This document shows positions 25,437 to 62,918 of a stretch of DNA of 64,000 nucleotides, in pieces; the stretch's first letter is position 1; each line of letters begins with the position of its first letter. The position numbers and the translations under genes were made by a program. The DNA lies in assembly GCA_010093995.1 (NCBI GenBank), contig ML992502.1, forward strand, positions 2,612,728-2,676,727, given 5' to 3'. Below the pieces are notes generated by a model. The model was not told the DNA's origin. It ran no database searches and saw only the letters and a program-made list of their open reading frames with translations. The DNA is from Elsinoe ampelina (lineage: Eukaryota).

Positions 25437-26762
25437 ATGGCAATCAAAGAAAAGAACGACTTCGAAGTAGTGATTGTTGGCGGAGGTATTGCTGGTCTGT
25501 CGGCGGTAGGACGTCTCGTCGGAGTGGTGATGACAAGGACTGATGGCTGCTAGGCGATTACGCTTAGAGGTCCAGGAAGGCGTATCACAATTCTGGGAAA
25601 GTCTCGAATGAACAAGGAGGTCGGCGCCCTGATCTCATTCCAACCAAATGCCCAGAAGATAGTAGAGTCGTGGGGCATAGATGAGCACTTCAACAAAGCG
25701 CGTCCTCTCGGTGACACCGCGTTCCAGATCCTTGATGTTAATGGTGATGTGCGAATGCGGATACCTCTCAGCACGGAAAGGTACGGCGCCAACAGAGTGA
25801 TGTACCATCGACAGGATCTCCACTCGGCACTCAAGGCTGGCGCGACATCCACGGATCTTCCTGGTCCTCCCGCTGTGATCAAGACTGCGTCGAAGGTCGT
25901 CTCGTGCGATTGTGATGCTGGCATTGTCACCCTTGAGGACGGCACGACCGTACAAGGAGACCTCGTCATCGGTGCAGATGGTATCCATAGTCCCATCCGT
26001 GCCTCTTTATTGTCGTCCCTTGGTCTCAAGCCAGTGCAGCCCCTCGCCACTGGTCTTTCTGCTTATCGCGTGCTCCTCGATACTGCTTCTATGCCGGAGC
26101 TCGATGTACCTTCATCAACCTTCACCGCCACCGCACCCATCACGACAATGATGATGGCGCACGACCGACGTGTCGTCATGGCGCCTGCAAGGGGTGGCGA
26201 TGTCTTCGGCCTTGTCTGCCTGGTGCCGGATGCGAAAATGAACGAAGACAGCCATGGAAATAGCTGGACCACCCCGTCGTCGGTCTCGGAGGTATTGGAG
26301 CAGTGAGAAGATTTTCCCATCTGGCTGAAGGATATTCTAAAGTGCGCTGACGACGTCGCGCTCTGGCAGCTGAGGGACATCGATCCTCTTCCGACATGGA
26401 CAAAAGGTCGAACAATCCTCATCGGAGATGCTGCGCACGCGATGCTGCCGACGCAAGGCCAAGGTGCGAGTCAAAGTATTGAAGACGCAGAGGCATTGCA
26501 AGCTTTCTTCCGCGGCGTCGAAGGGAAGATCGAGAAGGAGGAAATCGAGAGGCGATTGAAAGAGGTTGTTGATTCAAGAATCGAGCGCGCGTCATTGATA
26601 CAGGCGTATAGTCGTCAGCAGGCACAGCATGCGACTGCAAAGGGCGAGACGGAGATCAAGATGAACCCGGTTGAGTTTATGGATTACAATTGTGGTTACG
26701 CTGGGGCGCTCGATTGGGTGAAGAGGTCAAAGCTGTCAGCGTCGCCACGTGTCGCACAATAG
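25437..26762 (+). pseudogene. FAD-dependent monooxygenase (salicylate hydroxylase-like) with in-frame stop
   Basis: Motifs IVGGGIAGL, DLVIGADGIHS and LIGDAAHAMLPTQGQGASQSIEDA. In-frame TGA at 26304-26306 (VLEQ*EDFPIWL), with the same frame continuing to 26762. Confidence 0.85.
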
Positions 26763-27055
26763 GCAGGATATTCACGCTGGCGAGCTGCAAGCTTTGTTTC
26801 TATCTAAACAACTTCACAATCGAGCTCTTTTCCTCACCTTCTGCACGTTCAATTACTACCAGATTGCTCGCCTTGCGCACCATCCGTTCGTGACAATCAT
26901 CGTGTCAGCACGAGTAGAAGGCTAACAAACTACCAGCAGCTGTAGTGGGAGAGGGAGGAGCTCGTCGCCGCCCTCACCAGGGGTGAAGACTTCAGTACGT
27001 TCTACTACCAGAGGCTGCTTGCTAGCACTGGTATAGCCTTTTGAGGCTTTACAGT

Positions 27056-27456
27056 CTGGTAGTACCTGAGAGCTAATACCTACCAGCAAACATGGATACC
27101 TCGCCGTCGCCCCTTCCAAAGGGCGTTTCAAGTAAGCTCACACCACCATCAGAAGCTATCCTTGGGCTGCCTACTCTGGCACAGGCTTTTTGGCTGAGCA
27201 ACCTGGTAGTATCTGAGAGCTAATACCTACCAGATGCCACAGAGACCTCGCCGTCGCGGTCGCCCCTTCGCAGGGGGTTCCCTGGTAAGCTCTTATAGCC
27301 TTTCGAGGTTGGCATCCTGGTAGTACCTGACGGCTAATACCTACCAGATCCAGCACGAAGCCTGCTGTCTGACCTGTTTGCCAGCAGTAAGGCATTTGGT
27401 AAGATCATTGTGTGAGGAGTGGTTTCTGGTAGTACCTTGCGGCTAATTCCTACCAG
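27056..27456 (+). repeat. Four copies of a 31-bp imperfect palindrome CTGGTAGTACCTGAGAGCTAATACCTACCAG
   Basis: Copies at 27056-27086, 27203-27233, 27317-27347 and 27426-27456; spacers of 116, 83 and 78 nt; degenerate half copy at 26921-26936. Confidence 0.92.
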
Positions 27457-27581
27457 ATTCGGGTGAACCTTCCGCGCCCGGCAGAACTTTCCCTGCCAAC
27501 AAACCGGACTCAAAGAAAGTCCATTTCGATATACCTCCCACTCACCAAAACATCAAGCATGGTAGCCGGAAAGGCGCCAAA

Positions 27582-30500
27582 ATGTCTGCGGATCTCTCGC
27601 CACGAGCGTGGTTCGTGTCGCTCGAATTCCACGACGATCACTTCTCGCGCGACTCTATCATAATCAATACTGAGCACATAGCTGGCTGCGATCTTCTGCT
27701 TGGCTCAATAGCGCGAGTGGCACCATTCCACGCATCAAAGCGCACTCACAATGGTCGCAACTCTTCAGATCATAGCTCAACCGTGGACGACAGCTCTCAA
27801 TATGGTGGCACCAGCACTTCGGACGGGACCGATAGTCAGACTTCTAAGCGCACCGCCTCGCGAGGTACAAAGCGGACCGCACGAAGTGGTCACAGTGTCG
27901 ATGGTGATATACCCGGAACCGTCGAGCACAGTAAATCACTGGTCTTCACTGTCGGACAGCTCACTTCAGAACAGAGGTTGAAGAAGCCTCACATGCAGAT
28001 CTCACTCCACACAAGTATCAAGTCCGTTTTCAACTTCACAAACCGTCAGCGAGCCGTAGTATACCCCGACAGCAAAGAAACTTCTCAGGCTTCCTTCATC
28101 GAACTGGCTTTTCGTGACCAGTACCTCGCCCGCTCGGACATGTGGCAGCTCACGGTCAACGAGCTGAGCAACCAACCTGTCTACCGAGGCCAGCAAGTCA
28201 CTTTTATGGGAAGCATCAAAGCGAAAATCAAGAACATCTTCGTCCGTAAAAAGAAGGTGAATTCCGCTCTGGTGACGGCTTCGACAATTCCCATCTTCCG
28301 GAGCGAGTCAGCTCGATATGTCTTCTTCATCCAGATGTCGAGGGAGATGTGGGAGTACGACGCGGACGGCAGCGGCGAGATCATGTTCAACAAGGTCATT
28401 AACGGCTTCCTTCCGGATCTGTTCAAGCGATGGCAGAAGGCTGCAGCTCGACATCTCGTCAGCATCATCCTCTTCGCACGAATCGAGTATGAGAGAGGCA
28501 TCTTGAAGCACCAAACCGAACCCGCCTACAACAAGCGATCCGATCCCGATGACAAGGACCAAAAGGATTACCGAGATTTCTACAGAGTGGTCACGACAGA
28601 CATGGCCAGTGGAGAGTGGATCCGCATATTGTATGGGCTGAAGAAGGAGTTCAAGGTCTTCCTCAGAGACACCTTGATTCTTCCCGGAGAAGAAGCATAC
28701 GGTCGACTACCAGACACCCTCTCCAGCGTGAAGGACGCCGCCGACGTGGATTGCGTGATCGCCGGAACACCGACAATCGCGGCAAAGGGCAATGTGCTGG
28801 AGGCCATCAATCTCGCTTCATCTCAATTCGCACAAGACTATATCGACAGGGACTTGGTGCGAACTGGAATCTCGCTGGTCATTATCACAGCCGGCAGTGG
28901 CGTCTTCGAGGTGGACTACGACATGCTCAAGTTGACTACAGATACCTTGGTGGGAAACGGCTTCGGCATAGACCTGGTAGCGCTGTCACCCATGCCTTTG
29001 CATTCTGTCCCGTTGTTCAAGTACAGGACACCACAAGCTGCACGGGGAATCCTCGCAAAGTCTTCCTTTGGCAGCTTTGGCAGAGGAAGTGCAACACCAC
29101 GCAACATCCCTTTGCGAACCAAACTTTCAGCTTCACCAGTCAAGCTAGATCATTTACCGAATAGCAAGCAGTTCTCTAGCACGAACGAACCGACCAACGA
29201 GGATGATGACGCAGAATCAACTTGGAGGTACGCTCTACCTCATTGGATCGATGTGTCTTTCTGGACTGGCGATGAAGACACATCCTGGGAGGATACAACG
29301 GCTTCGTTCAAACATCGTATCAACAGAGTCTCGAACGACTTTATTCCAAGCGTTCGAATGTATGAGCTGCAGATGATGGACCTGATGGACATTGAGATTG
29401 CCGACATTTCTTTGCCACTAATGGAACCTATAATCCGTCCCGTCACCAAGGCAAGCGGCGACTCGAAGGACTCCAACCACCATTCAACGGATATGTCACG
29501 GCTCCTGAACAGCTCGAATGCAGCAGCGTGGACTCCAAAAGGTTCACCGGAGAAGCAGGCACCCGAACCAGAAGCTGACGCCGATCTTGCCCGCAAGCTG
29601 CTCGAACAGTGGATGGACGATTATGACCGACAAGTTTTCGAAGATGATCCAGGCGCAGCTTCGATGGGCCTGACCTTCGAGAAGACACAGAAGGACGCAA
29701 ACACGACCCGCAGCCACGGTAGATCTGACAGTATCTCTGCTAGTTTCACTGAGCTCGGTACATCACCATCCGGGAGCGCTTTGAGCAGATCACCGCTGTC
29801 ACACTTCCAAGGACTGAAGAAACCTCGAGATCGGAAGGAGTCAATGGCATCGCTCGTGTCGGTCCCTGACAATGCCTCTGTCAACAGTGCATCAGGGCTA
29901 AGGCCGACAACGGACGGGAAGCCTGATCTCGCGAAACGTGCGAAGCTCAATCGCCAGATAAGCCTGGGTTTCAAAGGTATCGGTCCCGGAAAAGCCATCG
30001 CAAGCACCAGCATCAGCTCCGGAAGTGTCGATATGACGCCGGCCACTTCTGACATGCGAAGCACCACGGGCACAACAAAGCCTGTGGGTCTACTGACACA
30101 GCAGCTTCGCATGTCACTAAGAAGAAAGCCATCAGAAGCTACTCTTGTCGAGCAGAGCGAGGTCAAAGACACCAAGAGTCAGAAGCAGCACCAAAGCACT
30201 CCCATCTCCATTCAGAAGGACAGTAGCAGTGAGAGCTCGAACGATGAAGACAGTCTGGCAGATGCAACGGTCAAACCAGGACAGCTGCTCAAACCAAGCG
30301 AATACGGCTCTACAGTCCGGCCCGAGAACAAGTTCTTGAAAACGGCACCAGGTCGAAAGGACTCTGTGGGGAAGACGCGAGATCATGAGCTTTCCCCGTG
30401 GAGCGCCATGTCACCGTGGCTAACGCTGCTCAACCCTTCCAATCCAAGAAAGGACAACATGAGTGTGGCTACTCAGTTCCGAAGGTGGCAGCATGTCTTC

Positions 30501-33209
30501 CCACGAGCGATTCCTACAACGGCCATCAAATGGAAGTCCTTGACATCTCCGGCAGCCTTACCACTCACGAATGAATACTTTCCTACACAAGAGGAACTCA
30601 GAGACCAGTACGAAGAGAAGATACACAGAGTACAAGTGCCCGAGGATGAGGACAACGATCTCAAAGCTACCGATGTCAAGTCGCTGATGCGGCGATTGAT
30701 CTCTTCCCGCTTCTCCAATGGCTTTCAACTGGTCATCGGAAACGATGCGAAGGCGCACGCCGAAGTTCTGGATCTGAAGCTGATCGAATGCTTCGAGCCG
30801 CAATTGGCTGTGGACCAGGATTCGGTCGTGTTGATGAGTATCGGGAACGATTATCATCAGCTCCAGTGCACACGAGAAGACGAAGTCCTGGTCAAGCGAT
30901 ACATCAGAAAGACAGCCATGTTGCCAGTCCCTGTCCAAGACTCAAGGATCTTGTACAAGCCCAGGGTACGGACGATGCTTGCAGAGACTTATACGAAACG
31001 GAGTTTTGTGCTGCAAAATCCACGTTCGACATACGACTGGACTTCTATAGACGATCACTCGGCTGGAGTCAAGCCTGAGCTATCCGAAGAATTCCGCTTC
31101 TGGCGAGCACGTTTTGTGCTGATCCCAGTGGACATTCCTAAAGGAGCTCGCGGCTCTCTGGCACCAGTGACAGAAGTGACCGACGAAGAGACAAGGGTGG
31201 AGGGCATCCAGAAGCTCACTCAGATGTGGCAGAGGAACAGGTACTATCCACCAAGCGAGAAGCGCTACCAGGCTTCATTGCCCGCCCAGCACAAAGACAC
31301 CAATCCACTGGCGATAGACTACCAGACAAGAGATCCATCAGCTGTGGTCAGAGCACATGCGCTTGGTCCGGTGGAAAGCCTCCTGCATGGAGGTGATGGC
31401 TTCCCGCTTTTCGCCGAGTCCAACATGTACCACAGTAGCGACTTTGACTTGCAACGAGTGGCACAGCATCTGCAGTCAAAGCCACCAAAGGGTATCATGA
31501 TGGTCGACCGACGCTGGCACTTCAAGTTGTACCATAGGTGCTTCCGTGGTGATGAACTAACATCTTGGATTCTTGCCAACTTCAAGGATACCGAATACAG
31601 AGAAGATGCGGTCAGACTTGGCAACGAGCTCATGAAGAAAGGCTTGTTCACCCATGTTCAGTCGAAACATCACTTCAGGGACGGCAACTACTTCTACCAA
31701 GTATCGAGCGAGTACCGGACCACCTCGTTCCAAGATTCGAGAGGATGGTTCAGCCGTATGACGGACAGATCCATTCCGACCACTCCAAGCGTTGAGACTA
31801 ATCAGAACTCGCCCATGTCAGAGCGTCCAGCATCACGAGCAAGCAAGGCATCATCCGGGACCTCGTCCGGTGAACGGACTCCGACTAAGGAAAAGGTTCT
31901 GGAGCTCAGCCGCATGTTGCAGTACGACGTTGATCCGAAGAAGAAGTCCTGGCGACCGGAGATCATCCACCTGCACTATGACAGGATCCACAACCCGGAC
32001 AATTGCTACCATCTGCGCATCGAATGGATGAATGTCTCCTCGAAGCTCATAGAGGATGTGATCGTTTCTTGGGCAACGACGGTCGATCGTTATGGTCTCA
32101 AGCTGGTCGAAGTACCGATTGCGGAAGCCTGCAAGATCAGTGAGGATCATCCGTTCCGAACGCCATACAGAGTGGATCTGGTCTGCCCGCCTCCAAAGAG
32201 TACACCTCGCCACTACTTTGAGACTGTTACATTCAGCGGCCTGCACTCACTAGACGACCCTCTGGCATATCAAAAGGCAGTCCTGCGCAAATGGGACTTT
32301 GTCCTTGACATCGAATCAGCCAAGTCGTTCGAGTCCACGGTGCCCGTGACCTACTCCTGGGGCAAGCCTTCTTACCAATATACCCAGTTCATCCACAAAT
32401 CTGGCGGACTGCTCGCTCAGATCACCGATGAGGGCTCTTTCCTTCTCCTGGCCAATCGCCTCTGCTCGAACAGAGTGACACCAAGCAAAGACACGTCCAA
32501 GGCGGATCACCCGGAACGGGCTCCTTTCGATCGCCGCACCACCCGCACTGCCGCCTCACCATATGCCTCTCCTCTGATCCGCCCGGCCGACGTCCCTATC
32601 CCGCCATCTCCTCACCTCTCTGCTCTCGCCGACCAGCGTCCATCGGTCGCCACCTCTCGCATCCCCACGACCACTTCCAAGAAAGACCTCCTCCGCCCGC
32701 TTACCTTTTCCGAAACTCGCCTCAACGGCAAACCCTTGACGGCGGAGAACCTCTTGAACGCCTTTGAGAAATTCTGCCACAACAAGACCGAGCTCGAAGT
32801 TTTCTGGGAAGACGCCCTGAAGCCCTCTGCTTCGCCTAGCCCGCGCCAACACCCTGCCGACCGCGCCAGTCCCCGTGTCACACCCACTCTGCGCGGTGTG
32901 AGCGCCGCTTTCGCGCGACAAGGACGTGGAGCAGGACCGGAGCTCGGCGCCGTCGAGGAGATTCCTAGCTTGGGACTGCCGGAGAGGAGGATGCAATTCG
33001 GTGCTGGGAGGGCGGCGAGTTATGCGCCTTCTAGTGGGTTTGGGTTGGGGCCGGGAGCGGGGGAGAGGGAAAGGGAGAGGGAAAGGAGGGAAAGTGGTGG
33101 TGGAGAGGGGAGGAGTGGGGCCTTGGGGGCGCAGTTGCTGGGGAGGCCGGCCAGTCCGAGGGATACGATGTTGGGAGAGGATGGGAAGAAGGGTCCTGGT
33201 GGAGCATGA
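27582..33209 (+). CDS. IML1: Vacuolar membrane-associated protein Iml1 (SEACIT/GATOR1 subunit, DEPDC5 ortholog)
   Basis: 1875-aa ORF with FRDQYLARSDMW, FRSESARYVFFIQMSREMW, DRDLVRTG, KWKSLTSPAALPLT and a DEP domain (DRRWHFKLYHRCFRG...FRDGNYFY). Confidence 0.96.
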   Translation: MSADLSPRAWFVSLEFHDDHFSRDSIIINTEHIAGCDLLLGSIARVAPFHASKRTHNGRNSSDHSSTVDDSSQYGGTSTSDGTDSQTSKRTASRGTKRTARSGHSVDGDIPGTVEHSKSLVFTVGQLTSEQRLKKPHMQISLHTSIKSVFNFTNRQRAVVYPDSKETSQASFIELAFRDQYLARSDMWQLTVNELSNQPVYRGQQVTFMGSIKAKIKNIFVRKKKVNSALVTASTIPIFRSESARYVFFIQMSREMWEYDADGSGEIMFNKVINGFLPDLFKRWQKAAARHLVSIILFARIEYERGILKHQTEPAYNKRSDPDDKDQKDYRDFYRVVTTDMASGEWIRILYGLKKEFKVFLRDTLILPGEEAYGRLPDTLSSVKDAADVDCVIAGTPTIAAKGNVLEAINLASSQFAQDYIDRDLVRTGISLVIITAGSGVFEVDYDMLKLTTDTLVGNGFGIDLVALSPMPLHSVPLFKYRTPQAARGILAKSSFGSFGRGSATPRNIPLRTKLSASPVKLDHLPNSKQFSSTNEPTNEDDDAESTWRYALPHWIDVSFWTGDEDTSWEDTTASFKHRINRVSNDFIPSVRMYELQMMDLMDIEIADISLPLMEPIIRPVTKASGDSKDSNHHSTDMSRLLNSSNAAAWTPKGSPEKQAPEPEADADLARKLLEQWMDDYDRQVFEDDPGAASMGLTFEKTQKDANTTRSHGRSDSISASFTELGTSPSGSALSRSPLSHFQGLKKPRDRKESMASLVSVPDNASVNSASGLRPTTDGKPDLAKRAKLNRQISLGFKGIGPGKAIASTSISSGSVDMTPATSDMRSTTGTTKPVGLLTQQLRMSLRRKPSEATLVEQSEVKDTKSQKQHQSTPISIQKDSSSESSNDEDSLADATVKPGQLLKPSEYGSTVRPENKFLKTAPGRKDSVGKTRDHELSPWSAMSPWLTLLNPSNPRKDNMSVATQFRRWQHVFPRAIPTTAIKWKSLTSPAALPLTNEYFPTQEELRDQYEEKIHRVQVPEDEDNDLKATDVKSLMRRLISSRFSNGFQLVIGNDAKAHAEVLDLKLIECFEPQLAVDQDSVVLMSIGNDYHQLQCTREDEVLVKRYIRKTAMLPVPVQDSRILYKPRVRTMLAETYTKRSFVLQNPRSTYDWTSIDDHSAGVKPELSEEFRFWRARFVLIPVDIPKGARGSLAPVTEVTDEETRVEGIQKLTQMWQRNRYYPPSEKRYQASLPAQHKDTNPLAIDYQTRDPSAVVRAHALGPVESLLHGGDGFPLFAESNMYHSSDFDLQRVAQHLQSKPPKGIMMVDRRWHFKLYHRCFRGDELTSWILANFKDTEYREDAVRLGNELMKKGLFTHVQSKHHFRDGNYFYQVSSEYRTTSFQDSRGWFSRMTDRSIPTTPSVETNQNSPMSERPASRASKASSGTSSGERTPTKEKVLELSRMLQYDVDPKKKSWRPEIIHLHYDRIHNPDNCYHLRIEWMNVSSKLIEDVIVSWATTVDRYGLKLVEVPIAEACKISEDHPFRTPYRVDLVCPPPKSTPRHYFETVTFSGLHSLDDPLAYQKAVLRKWDFVLDIESAKSFESTVPVTYSWGKPSYQYTQFIHKSGGLLAQITDEGSFLLLANRLCSNRVTPSKDTSKADHPERAPFDRRTTRTAASPYASPLIRPADVPIPPSPHLSALADQRPSVATSRIPTTTSKKDLLRPLTFSETRLNGKPLTAENLLNAFEKFCHNKTELEVFWEDALKPSASPSPRQHPADRASPRVTPTLRGVSAAFARQGRGAGPELGAVEEIPSLGLPERRMQFGAGRAASYAPSSGFGLGPGAGERERERERRESGGGEGRSGALGAQLLGRPASPRDTMLGEDGKKGPGGA

Positions 33210-36978: not shown

Positions 36979-37234
36979 GAAGCAGTGTCAATAGCTTGTA
37001 CAGTATCGAGGAATTTTCTGAGCGCGATGTTGTGGAAGGACAATTCCACATTTCACTTCACTTCACATCGTCACCTCACATGGATTCACCAGATCTTTGC
37101 TTTGCGGACCAAGATCTGTTAGCTGCCAGCGCATCGCTACCAAGATCTATATCGAGAAGATCTGTGTCATCCACGTGGCTTGCATAGCCTTTGTGCAAAT
37201 TTTCACACGATCCTCATGTCTAGTCCATCAAATT

Positions 37235-37450
37235 CACATCCCCTATCTTCAAATGCCTCATCTCAATTCAACATCTTCACATCCCTCATCTGCAGAATTT
37301 TCATCTCGATTCAACATGCTCACATCTCGTGTCTTCAAATCCGTCATCTCCATTCAACATCTTCACATCTCCTACCTTCAAATGCCTCATCTCGTGCCCT
37401 CAATATCACATCCCTTGGATGCAGAATTTTATCTCCATCCGATATATTAA
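37235..37450. repeat. Degenerate 43-bp minisatellite (at least 5 units)
   Basis: CACATC unit starts at 37235, 37278, 37321, 37364 and 37407, exactly 43 nt apart. Confidence 0.85.
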
Positions 37451-62001: not shown

Positions 62002-62165
62002 CTACAGAGGCTTCCGTATACTTTGCCAGACTCATCGTCTGGTTCAGATGCCAGAAGTCTACTGTAGCCCCGAATCACAACGAGCGAAAAGCGCCCCGAA
62101 ACTCTGCTAGCCAGATGTAGAGGCGCTCAGAGCTCGTTTGAGCCCTGCTTAGCAGGTTGCTTTTT
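62002..62165 (+). ncRNA. Candidate structured ncRNA, copy 1 (Pol III-like signals)
   Basis: Direct repeat of 62761-62918 with conserved stems and variable loops; TATATA at 61969, T5 at 62161 and GGTTCGATTCT at 62199. Confidence 0.55.
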
Positions 62166-62760: not shown

Positions 62761-62918
62761 CTACAATGCTTCCGTATACTCTGCCAGATCCGTCTGGTCC
62801 AGATGCCAGACATTGTAGCCTCAAATCACAACGAGCGAAAAGTTCCCCGAAAACTCTGCTAGCCAGATGTAGAGGAGCTCAGAGCACGTTTGAGCCCTGC
62901 CGAGCAGGTTGCTTTTTT
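62761..62918 (+). ncRNA. Candidate structured ncRNA, copy 2 (Pol III-like signals)
   Basis: Direct repeat of 62002-62165; TATATA at 62729, T6 at 62913 and GGTTCAATTCT at 62963. Confidence 0.55.

Follow-up and report, generated by a model that had tools for sequence, protein, structure and literature searches.

The palindromic 31-mers that lie upstream of IML1 in Elsinoe ampelina are the best-kept 3′ ends of five homologous tandem units. Together the units span positions 26789 to 27456 of the window, which is the whole 64-kb stretch of DNA that was analysed and to which all coordinates refer. The structure is real and tidy, and most likely represents a multi-unit case of a known type of event. 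Our leading explanation is that the array consists of segmentally duplicated spliceosomal introns, situated in the IML1 leader or in an upstream transcript, and we hold this explanation tentatively, at slightly less than an even chance. Transcription, splicing and a role for the hairpin are features that we infer from the DNA sequence.

A preliminary description of the region had reported four near-identical 31-mers separated by gaps of 116, 83 and 78 nt. All four copies were recovered with exactly these gaps, corresponding to a start-to-start spacing of 147, 114 and 109 nt. Their positions are as follows.

27056 to 27086, + strand: 31-mer copy 1, CTGGTAG-17 nt-CTACCAG, with a GCTAAT branch-like site 10 nt from the terminal CAG
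27203 to 27233, + strand: 31-mer copy 2, which ends unit S3
27317 to 27347, + strand: 31-mer copy 3, which ends unit U2
27426 to 27456, + strand: 31-mer copy 4, which ends unit U3

Relative to copy 1, there is one mismatch in copy 2, two in copy 3, and five in copy 4 (26/31 identical). Across the four-copy alignment, 25 of the 31 columns are invariant, and these include both 7-nt arms, the TA that follows the 5′ arm, the GCTAAT element, and the CC that precedes the 3′ arm. The six variable columns (10, 13–16 and 23) all fall within the loop and outside GCTAAT, and conservation falls sharply at both ends of the 31-mer. None of 100 dinucleotide shuffles of the window contained any match to the 31-mer. 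The 15-mer GCTAATNCCTACCAG, allowing up to two mismatches, occurs four times in the 64-kb window, each time inside the array, where 0.17 occurrences are expected. Copies 1 to 3 carry TAG, TGA and TAA stops in three different frames, and copy 4 is without the TGA.

Alignment of 26789–27456 shows that the array exceeds its earlier description, being composed of five units and not just four 31-mers. The units are listed below.

26789 to 26936, + strand: unit S1, oldest and degenerate, with TACTACCAG at 26854–62, GCTAAC followed by a CTACCAG that ends at 26936, and a decayed 5′ arm
26937 to 27086, + strand: unit S2, exon-like at 26946–26994 (GC 65%) and intron-like at 26995–27086 with donor GTACGT; alternative donor GTATAG at 27031
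27087 to 27233, + strand: unit S3, exon-like at 27087–27131 (with an ATG at 27092 inside) and intron-like at 27132–27233, 102 nt, with donor GTAAGC
27234 to 27347, + strand: unit U2, exon-like at 27234–27284 (GC 71%) and intron-like at 27285–27347, 63 nt, with donor GTAAGC
27348 to 27456, + strand: unit U3, exon-like at 27348–27386 or 27348–27398, with donor GTAAGG at 27387 or GTAAGA at 27399, and intron-like from there to 27456

The suggestion that these are mutually homologous, tandemly duplicated units of exon plus intron is upheld, since homology between the flanks reaches beyond the 31-mers, and the sequence that the mini-exons were said to share is present. Flank alignments score above shuffled controls with z values of 4.5 (S2–S3), 5.9 (S3–U2), 2.5 (S2–U2) and 2.3 (S1–S2), and in the S1–S2 flank 67 of 82 aligned positions are identical. 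The homology of the U3 flank to other units is weak (z 1.3–1.6). Tandem Repeats Finder did not call the array because its units are too diverged. Unit S1 is the most decayed, having lost its 5′ arm and donor and matching the good copies at only 12–15 of its last 31 nt, and decay grows toward the 5′ end of the array. Among the four good units, pairwise identity is 25–30/31 (81–97%) in the 31-mer versus 71–80% in the aligned flank columns, to which many indels must be added. The 31-mer thus forms a conserved island within a tandem duplication that is old.

This pattern of decay bears on whether the array does anything at all. It could be a functionless fossil, a decaying minisatellite that arose from an intron-bearing piece of a gene and that is now neither spliced nor bound, serving only to mislead gene predictors. 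The gradient of decay and the damaged state of S1 agree with such an origin, as do the lack of any copy elsewhere in the window and the different ways in which two annotation pipelines thread the region (described below). Neutral decay should treat flank and 31-mer alike, however, and here the paralogous flanks have diverged well beyond the level implied by the gene models of two species (given below), yet the 31-mers have kept both their high identity and intact signals. We therefore consider a neutral fossil to be quite unlikely.

The array lies before the start of IML1, as had been claimed. An FAD monooxygenase gene ends upstream of it, with its stop at 26762, and IML1 begins downstream, at 27582. 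Its surroundings are given here in order.

26442 to 26762, + strand: last exon and natural stop of an FAD-dependent monooxygenase (salicylate-hydroxylase-like), an ORF with its stop codon at 26760–62
27457 to 27581, + strand: unique leader or core-promoter stretch, with ATATA at 27529–33, a C/T-rich run at 27534–46, and an out-of-frame ATG at 27559
27582 to 33209, + strand: ORF of IML1 (SEACIT/GATOR1 subunit), 1875 aa, with a conserved start codon at 27582

Stand-alone monooxygenase orthologues, such as the 424-aa E. fawcettii protein P0124, end 8–14 residues past a conserved tryptophan, and the unspliced monooxygenase ORF of the window ends after this tryptophan in the same way. On the other side of the array, the closest IML1 orthologues (P0002, P0003 and P0004, which include those of E. 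fawcettii and Sphaceloma murrayae) all start at the Met encoded at 27582. Most other IML1 matches cover 81–86% of the query, which is the portion from this Met onward. Judged by where the monooxygenase orthologues end and the IML1 orthologues start, the array lies in a spacer of 819 bp that parts two distinct genes of like orientation, and in E. fawcettii the two are annotated as separate genes. Because the IML1 orthologues begin at this position, the mini-exons are not conserved coding sequence. A metagenome search for loci related to the IML1 N-terminus returned 78 pattern matches, none of which was confirmed. Only 26 nt separate the monooxygenase stop from unit S1, so an IML1 leader that took in the entire array would need a promoter running into the end of the monooxygenase gene. 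Downstream of the array, the stretch at 27457–27581 is open in the IML1 frame, with about 64% of its residues identical to an E. batatas gene model, and its ATATA and C/T-rich run at 27529–46 plausibly resemble a core promoter.

The internal anatomy of the good units is that of short introns. A branch site and acceptor had been proposed at the repeat ends, and all four good units indeed place GCTAAT 10 nt from CAG. The proposed donor-like sites are likewise where they were said to be: GTATAG at 27031, GTAAGC at 27132 and 27285, GTAAGG at 27387, and GTAAGA at 27399. A canonical donor (GTACGT, GTAAGC, GTAAGC, and GTAAGG or GTAAGA, respectively), the GCTAAT branch-like site and the CAG acceptor are all kept in 4/4 good units, with the donors sitting 30–70 nt upstream of each palindrome. 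GC content alternates in all four, at 55.6–70.6% in exon-like versus 45.7–51.0% in intron-like segments; for comparison, nine candidate introns of the window have a GC content of 47.2% and the IML1 ORF one of 54.2%. Candidate introns had to be flanked on each side by a long open frame, to begin with a GTRNGH donor and to finish in a YAG acceptor, with CTRAY 5–30 nt from the end. The resulting set has 19 rows and 14 distinct acceptors and is motif-filtered rather than RNA-verified, so that agreement with it indicates compatibility and not proof. Among these 14 motif-filtered acceptors, the distance from branch A to intron end is exactly 10 nt in five and 8–12 nt in nine, and the donor types of the array recur among the motif-filtered candidate introns of the window. 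Predicted intron lengths in the array are 56 or about 92 nt for S2, 102 nt for S3, 63 nt for U2, and 58 or 70 nt for U3. The nine candidate regular introns, which are not RNA-verified, measure 45–85 nt, and seven of them 45–51 nt.

These same signals weigh on a second reading of the conserved 31-mers, in which they are untranscribed cis-regulatory repeats in the IML1 promoter. CTACCAG and CTGGTAG would then form a cluster of protein-binding sites, and their resemblance to introns would be inherited from whatever sequence had been copied. The array sits directly upstream of the possible core promoter at 27529–46, its arms are invariant in 4/4 copies with variation confined to the loop, conservation drops at the 31-mer ends, and the upstream exons are not needed by IML1 orthologues. 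On the + strand CTACCAG is found seven times between 26856 and 27456 versus 17 times in the whole 64-kb window, and within these 600 bp the array holds seven direct and four inverted copies of CTACCAG/CTGGTAG. What promoter repeats would leave unexplained are the conserved GTAAG donors 30–70 nt upstream of the palindromes, the invariant GCTAAT of the loop at a typical 10-nt branch-to-acceptor distance, and the GC alternation together with a spliced frame that is free of stops (see below). For a single DNA-binding factor it would also be unusual to have 25 invariant positions and half-sites spaced 24 bp from each other, and no known motif stood out in the 31-mer. We consider a cis-regulatory cluster unlikely; the parsimonious reading of the invariant positions would be one at the level of RNA.

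When spliced in silico at its best donors, the leader runs for 86–107 codons in the IML1 frame without a stop and contains an in-frame ATG at 27092. The unspliced array stretch has 8–11 stops in every frame. When each exon was shuffled separately, 516–1166 of 20000 shuffles were equally stop-free, the number varying with the exons chosen. Another frame of the spliced leader contains no stop either, and the open frame may thus reflect composition only: it fits an exon-like composition, and as evidence for coding it is weak. This matters for the idea that the mini-exons are translated, giving an IML1 isoform extended at its N-terminus from ATG 27092 by duplicated Ser/Pro/Arg-rich mini-exons. The path from this ATG through the donors at 27132, 27285 and 27387 (or 27399) stays open and in the IML1 frame, and where the S3 and U2 exons are homologous they share a reading frame, with a 6-nt indel between them. 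Against translation, the three closest orthologues are annotated as starting at 27582, the second frame is equally open, and the gene models disagree on frame: the S2 exon in the deposited E. ampelina model is framed differently from its homologues, and the E. batatas model frames S3 differently. The pieces are too short for a test of substitution pattern. An extended isoform of this kind appears improbable.

Contigs from four runs of uncertain kind end at 26809 and resume at 27556, and this gap is neutral for splicing. Their only joint runs from 32977 to 33150 and skips 172 nt in a GA-rich repeat of the 3′ part of IML1. It was rejected as an intron because its ends, GC..CG, are not canonical.

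The deposited gene models pass directly through the array. In E. ampelina, P0001 is a 2361-aa fusion of the monooxygenase with IML1, and a script check showed that its residues from 303 onward correspond exactly to an exon ending at 26717, exons 26946–26994, 27234–27284 and 27348–27398, and an exon starting at 27457. The model has four linker introns, of 228, 239, 63 and 58 nt, and three of them terminate exactly at a 31-mer, whose end is thereby used as the acceptor. P0001 matches the predicted U2 exon and intron exactly, and in U3 it takes the exon 27348–27398 and the intron 27399–27456. Its introns of 228 and 239 nt far exceed the 45–85 nt of the candidate introns in the window, and its first linker donor removes the natural monooxygenase C-terminus seen in orthologues. 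The unspliced stop is where orthologues that consist of the monooxygenase by itself finish, so P0001 is a chimera of two genes.

A 2374-aa record from E. batatas, which belongs to the same 90% cluster as P0001, is likewise a fusion of monooxygenase and IML1. Its model keeps the S2 exon, with 11/16 residues identical, and then reads through the 3′ half of copy 1 (as ANTYQ), the S3 mini-exon and the GTAAGC donor, a stretch corresponding to 27072–27152 of the window. After this read-through of S3, which is in another frame, the model jumps to the stretch that follows copy 4. The parts of the array present in E. batatas are therefore the S2 exon, the 3′ half of copy 1, and the S3 exon with its GTAAGC donor, and their presence implies that the array predates the split between E. 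ampelina and E. batatas. Linker residues are about 64–79% identical between the two models, which we estimate to correspond to about 86–92% at the nucleotide level. Both annotations look like guesses by a predictor, since they use different exons and frames and the E. batatas model reads through a 31-mer and a donor. A comparison of the frame-0 read-through of S3 with proteins of 78–2000 aa yielded no candidate, the 2374-aa E. batatas record being outside this range, and two cluster members of 54 aa (P0121 and P0122) bear no visible relation to the linker.

The E. batatas model implies the same order of monooxygenase, array and IML1, which speaks to the proposal that the array is a set of recombinase or boundary sites at the edge of an accessory gene block. 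Position is what recommends this proposal, as the array follows the last gene of a block that the preliminary description had called decayed. Nothing recombinase-like is tied to the array, the window holds no second set of sites, and the gene order implied for E. batatas counts against a block edge, as do the two separately annotated E. fawcettii genes, whose records both give 434752 bases as the longest contig. We find a boundary function barely credible.

Each palindrome had been predicted to fold the branch point and 3′ splice site into a hairpin. The arms for a 7-bp stem are indeed present, but the predicted fold is weak, at −7.0 to −8.9 kcal/mol. Folded alone, the 31-mers give z values of −1.2 to −2.0, with 8 to 22 of 200 shuffles equalling or bettering them. 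For the whole predicted introns the z values are −1.70 (56 nt), −0.37 (102 nt), +0.23 (63 nt), and +0.27 (70 nt) or −0.31 (58 nt), and for three of the four introns 69, 112 and 117 (or 61) of 200 shuffles fold as well or better. With scores this close to those of shuffles, the whole introns are not unusually structured. The stem shows no covariation, being invariant in all copies, and the structure-gated splicing that the preliminary description had suggested is conjectural. The arms can also pair at a distance, in that every 5′ arm of a 31-mer is able to pair with every 3′ arm, and 9-nt perfect complements at 26854–62 and 27003–11 can pair with the 5′ arms. Long-range pairs between 26856 and the arms of copies 1–3, and between 27005 and the arm of copy 4, exceed shuffled-flank controls in strength (z −2.9 to −3.7), mostly on account of two TA pairs that the 9-nt complement adds. 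Rfam gave no match in 26400–27800 at E values up to 10, and a tRNA scan of 26000–28000 found no genes. An intron-hosted snoRNA was considered and dropped, given that the conserved part is only 31 nt and that Rfam gave no match. A self-contained 28-nt mini-intron inside the 31-mer was dropped as well, 28 nt being too short an intron for fungal splicing.

A bolder form of the intron reading gives these pairings a regulatory task. In it, four consecutive introns of the IML1 leader would each carry the 31-nt module as an RNA switch under selection, choosing both mini-exons and start codon. The stem would hide the acceptor and a donor-like GGUAGUA while displaying the branch site, and competing arm pairings, including those with 26854–62 and 27003–11, would choose among the leader mini-exons in the manner of docking and selector sequences. 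Use of the in-frame AUG at 27092 would give an N-terminally extended IML1, with translation otherwise starting from 27582. Two known systems are comparable: RNA structure near the branch point steers the use of 3′ splice sites in yeast, and docking and selector sequences pair between tandemly duplicated exons in Drosophila Dscam. The stem in the array resembles the yeast case in enclosing the branch-to-acceptor region, and resembles Dscam in offering many interchangeable complementary arms among duplicated mini-exons. In contrast to both cases, the structure here is predicted only, its energy is weak, and its stem is invariant. We judge a switch of this kind to be very improbable.

A link had also been drawn between the 31-mers and multi-copy introner-like elements (ILEs). 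It is unsupported, with no further copies in the remaining ~63 kb of the window and introns that fold no better than shuffles. Pattern searches of the 64-kb window found no 31-mer outside the array. A covariance model run over the window with filters off returned, below E 0.1, only the four copies and their reverse strands, and a metagenome scan with a degenerate 31-mer gave no matches. The result on dispersal covers 64 kb, which is too little sequence to exclude a family. Introners of the TIR/TSD type have a target-site duplication flanking each copy; unlike these, the array copies have no consistent target-site duplication, and on inspection the bases around the four 31-mers share no consistent direct repeat. 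ILEs occur in Dothideomycetes and, in the portions of PMC4457414 and PMC3609843 drawn on here, are described as about twice the normal intron length with significantly lower folding energy. The array is like them in that its repeats have the form of introns, carry full splice signals and are partly self-complementary, in a host that is a Dothideomycete. It differs, as far as these partial descriptions of ILEs allow comparison, in being, within the 64 kb, a single locus of tandem copies whose introns are unexceptional in stability; their length is 56–102 nt, beside 45–85 nt in the candidate regular introns. A mobile element, either an ILE or a TIR-type introner, that is also present in many other genes would fit the palindromic form, the branch site and acceptor carried by each copy, and the host lineage. 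It would not fit copies that are all in tandem at one locus with homologous flanks, the empty searches of the window and the metagenome, the absence of a consistent target-site duplication, or the folding scores given above, of which only that of the 56-nt intron departs from shuffles (z −1.70). We regard a mobile introner as highly improbable.

Two further comparisons reveal partial likeness. The array resembles CRISPR in having short palindromic repeats at regular intervals, but this likeness, which the preliminary description had remarked on, is superficial. A CRISPR array is ruled out because the window is fungal, the best database match to its IML1 protein, at 100% identity, bearing the name of Elsinoe ampelina, a Dothideomycete, and the spacers here are 78–116 nt long and homologous to one another, with neither cas genes nor a leader. 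Internally symmetrical stwintrons and cropped sister introns of the Hypoxylaceae (Fekete et al. 2021), according to the portion of PMC8469720 used here, have terminal inverted repeats of 45–55 nt that take in both intron ends, a donor interrupted by a nested intron, and copies dispersed to new gene positions. They share with the array an inverted-repeat symmetry in fungal introns, the capacity to form a hairpin, and a genuine intron reading on one strand only. Compared with that account, the arms in the array are only 7–9 nt and lie within the last 31 nt, the copies are in tandem, and no donor is nested.

The closest counterpart is the same-gene duplication (SGD), a class set out by Collemare, van der Burgt and de Wit in 2013 (PMC3609843). 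As excerpted from PMC3609843 and PMC4457414, SGDs are the rarer class of fungal intron duplication, and half of them are segmental, meaning that the flanking exon is duplicated too; segmental SGD introns have ordinary length and folding energy (PMC3609843). On the points covered by that excerpt, the array is similar in three respects: near-identical intron sequence is confined to one locus and found nowhere else in the 64 kb, the flanking exon-like sequence has been duplicated along with the intron-like part, and the introns are 56–102 nt long with ordinary folding energy. Unlike the SGDs described there, the array has five units, falls in a leader or intergenic spacer rather than in any coding sequence that has been verified, and is near-identical in the 3′ 31 nt only, the remainder having drifted; its introns, moreover, are predicted. 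Our comparison suggests that the array most likely belongs to the segmental same-gene duplication class, as a multi-unit case. A literature search found no description of this array or of intron repeats in Elsinoe.

The reading that we favour, duplicated spliceosomal introns, would proceed by repeated segmental duplication of a module of ~110–150 bp made up of a short GC-rich mini-exon and a short spliceosomal intron. Duplication of the segmental kind is indicated by the fact that all copies lie in tandem at one locus and have homologous flanks. The 31-mer would be the 3′ end of the intron, comprising the GCTAAT branch site, a 10-nt tail and the CAG acceptor. Within it, CCTACCAG would form the tail and acceptor, and CTGGTAGTA the 9-nt 5′ arm able to pair with the acceptor region. 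The four 3′-proximal units would be present or recent U2-type introns, belonging either to an IML1 leader initiated upstream or to a separate transcript, and splicing would remove the stop-rich hairpin segments. Selection on the splicing signals and on a small hairpin may be what keeps the 31-mers 81–97% identical while the units around them drift. Several points count against this reading: IML1 orthologues do without these exons, the two gene models disagree on how to thread the array, and a plausible core promoter lies downstream of it. Conservation of the 9-nt 5′ arm, which ordinary splicing does not require and leaves unexplained, also counts against it.

In Zymoseptoria tritici, the segmental-duplication route accounts for <1% of single intron gains, according to the portion of PMC4457414 considered here. 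If the array is spliced, it would be an unusually clear multi-step example of fungal intron gain by segmental duplication. The branch site and acceptor would then also be enclosed by a small hairpin that has been conserved, ahead of a nutrient-signalling gene, IML1 being a TORC1 regulator. The array misleads gene predictors, such that the public records of two Elsinoe species (2361 and 2374 aa) fuse a monooxygenase to IML1, and each of these records should be split into two proteins.

Public protein records from two Elsinoe species read across the repeat array and so join an FAD monooxygenase with IML1 in a single protein. One is the deposited E. ampelina protein of 2361 aa and the other an E. 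batatas protein of 2374 aa. The region concerned and the other features considered here are as follows.

25437-33209: fused monooxygenase-array-IML1 region of the public protein records
27052-27069, 27196-27216 and 27312-27330: segments complementary to 26849-26869 in S1
27559-27561: upstream ATG, 23 nt 5' of the IML1 start and out of frame
32977-33150: 172-nt skip (ends GC..CG) in one contig of X1, a sequencing run of uncertain kind
37234-37448: 43-nt-period tandem repeat whose identity to the reference 86-mer is 64-72%
62063-62165 and 62814-62917: segment of ~100 nt present twice (families D6 and D7)

Both halves of the fused records have stand-alone orthologues. Because these orthologues show that the monooxygenase and IML1 are two genes, the fusions look like annotation chimeras.

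The monooxygenase models also differ between the species, with a 17-residue segment kept in E. batatas and missing from E. ampelina. The corresponding ~51 nt, at about 26200-26300, are taken as an intron in one model and as coding sequence in the other. The upstream ATG begins a 34-codon uORF whose 3' end overlaps the IML1 coding region. The skip in the X1 contig falls within the GA-rich 3' part of IML1, which codes for Glu/Arg/Gly repeats, and is probably a repeat collapse or length variant rather than a canonical intron.

Elsewhere in the window, the 43-nt-period repeat contains many TCACATC/TCATCT motifs, and the two ~100-nt copies are 90-92% identical with a spacing of about 751 nt.

Within the array, S1, the decayed, most 5' unit, has a stretch of 18-21 nt whose complementarity to the 5' arm region in palindrome copies 1-3 is 79-86%. 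This complementary stretch exceeds the local hairpin stems, of 7 bp, in length.
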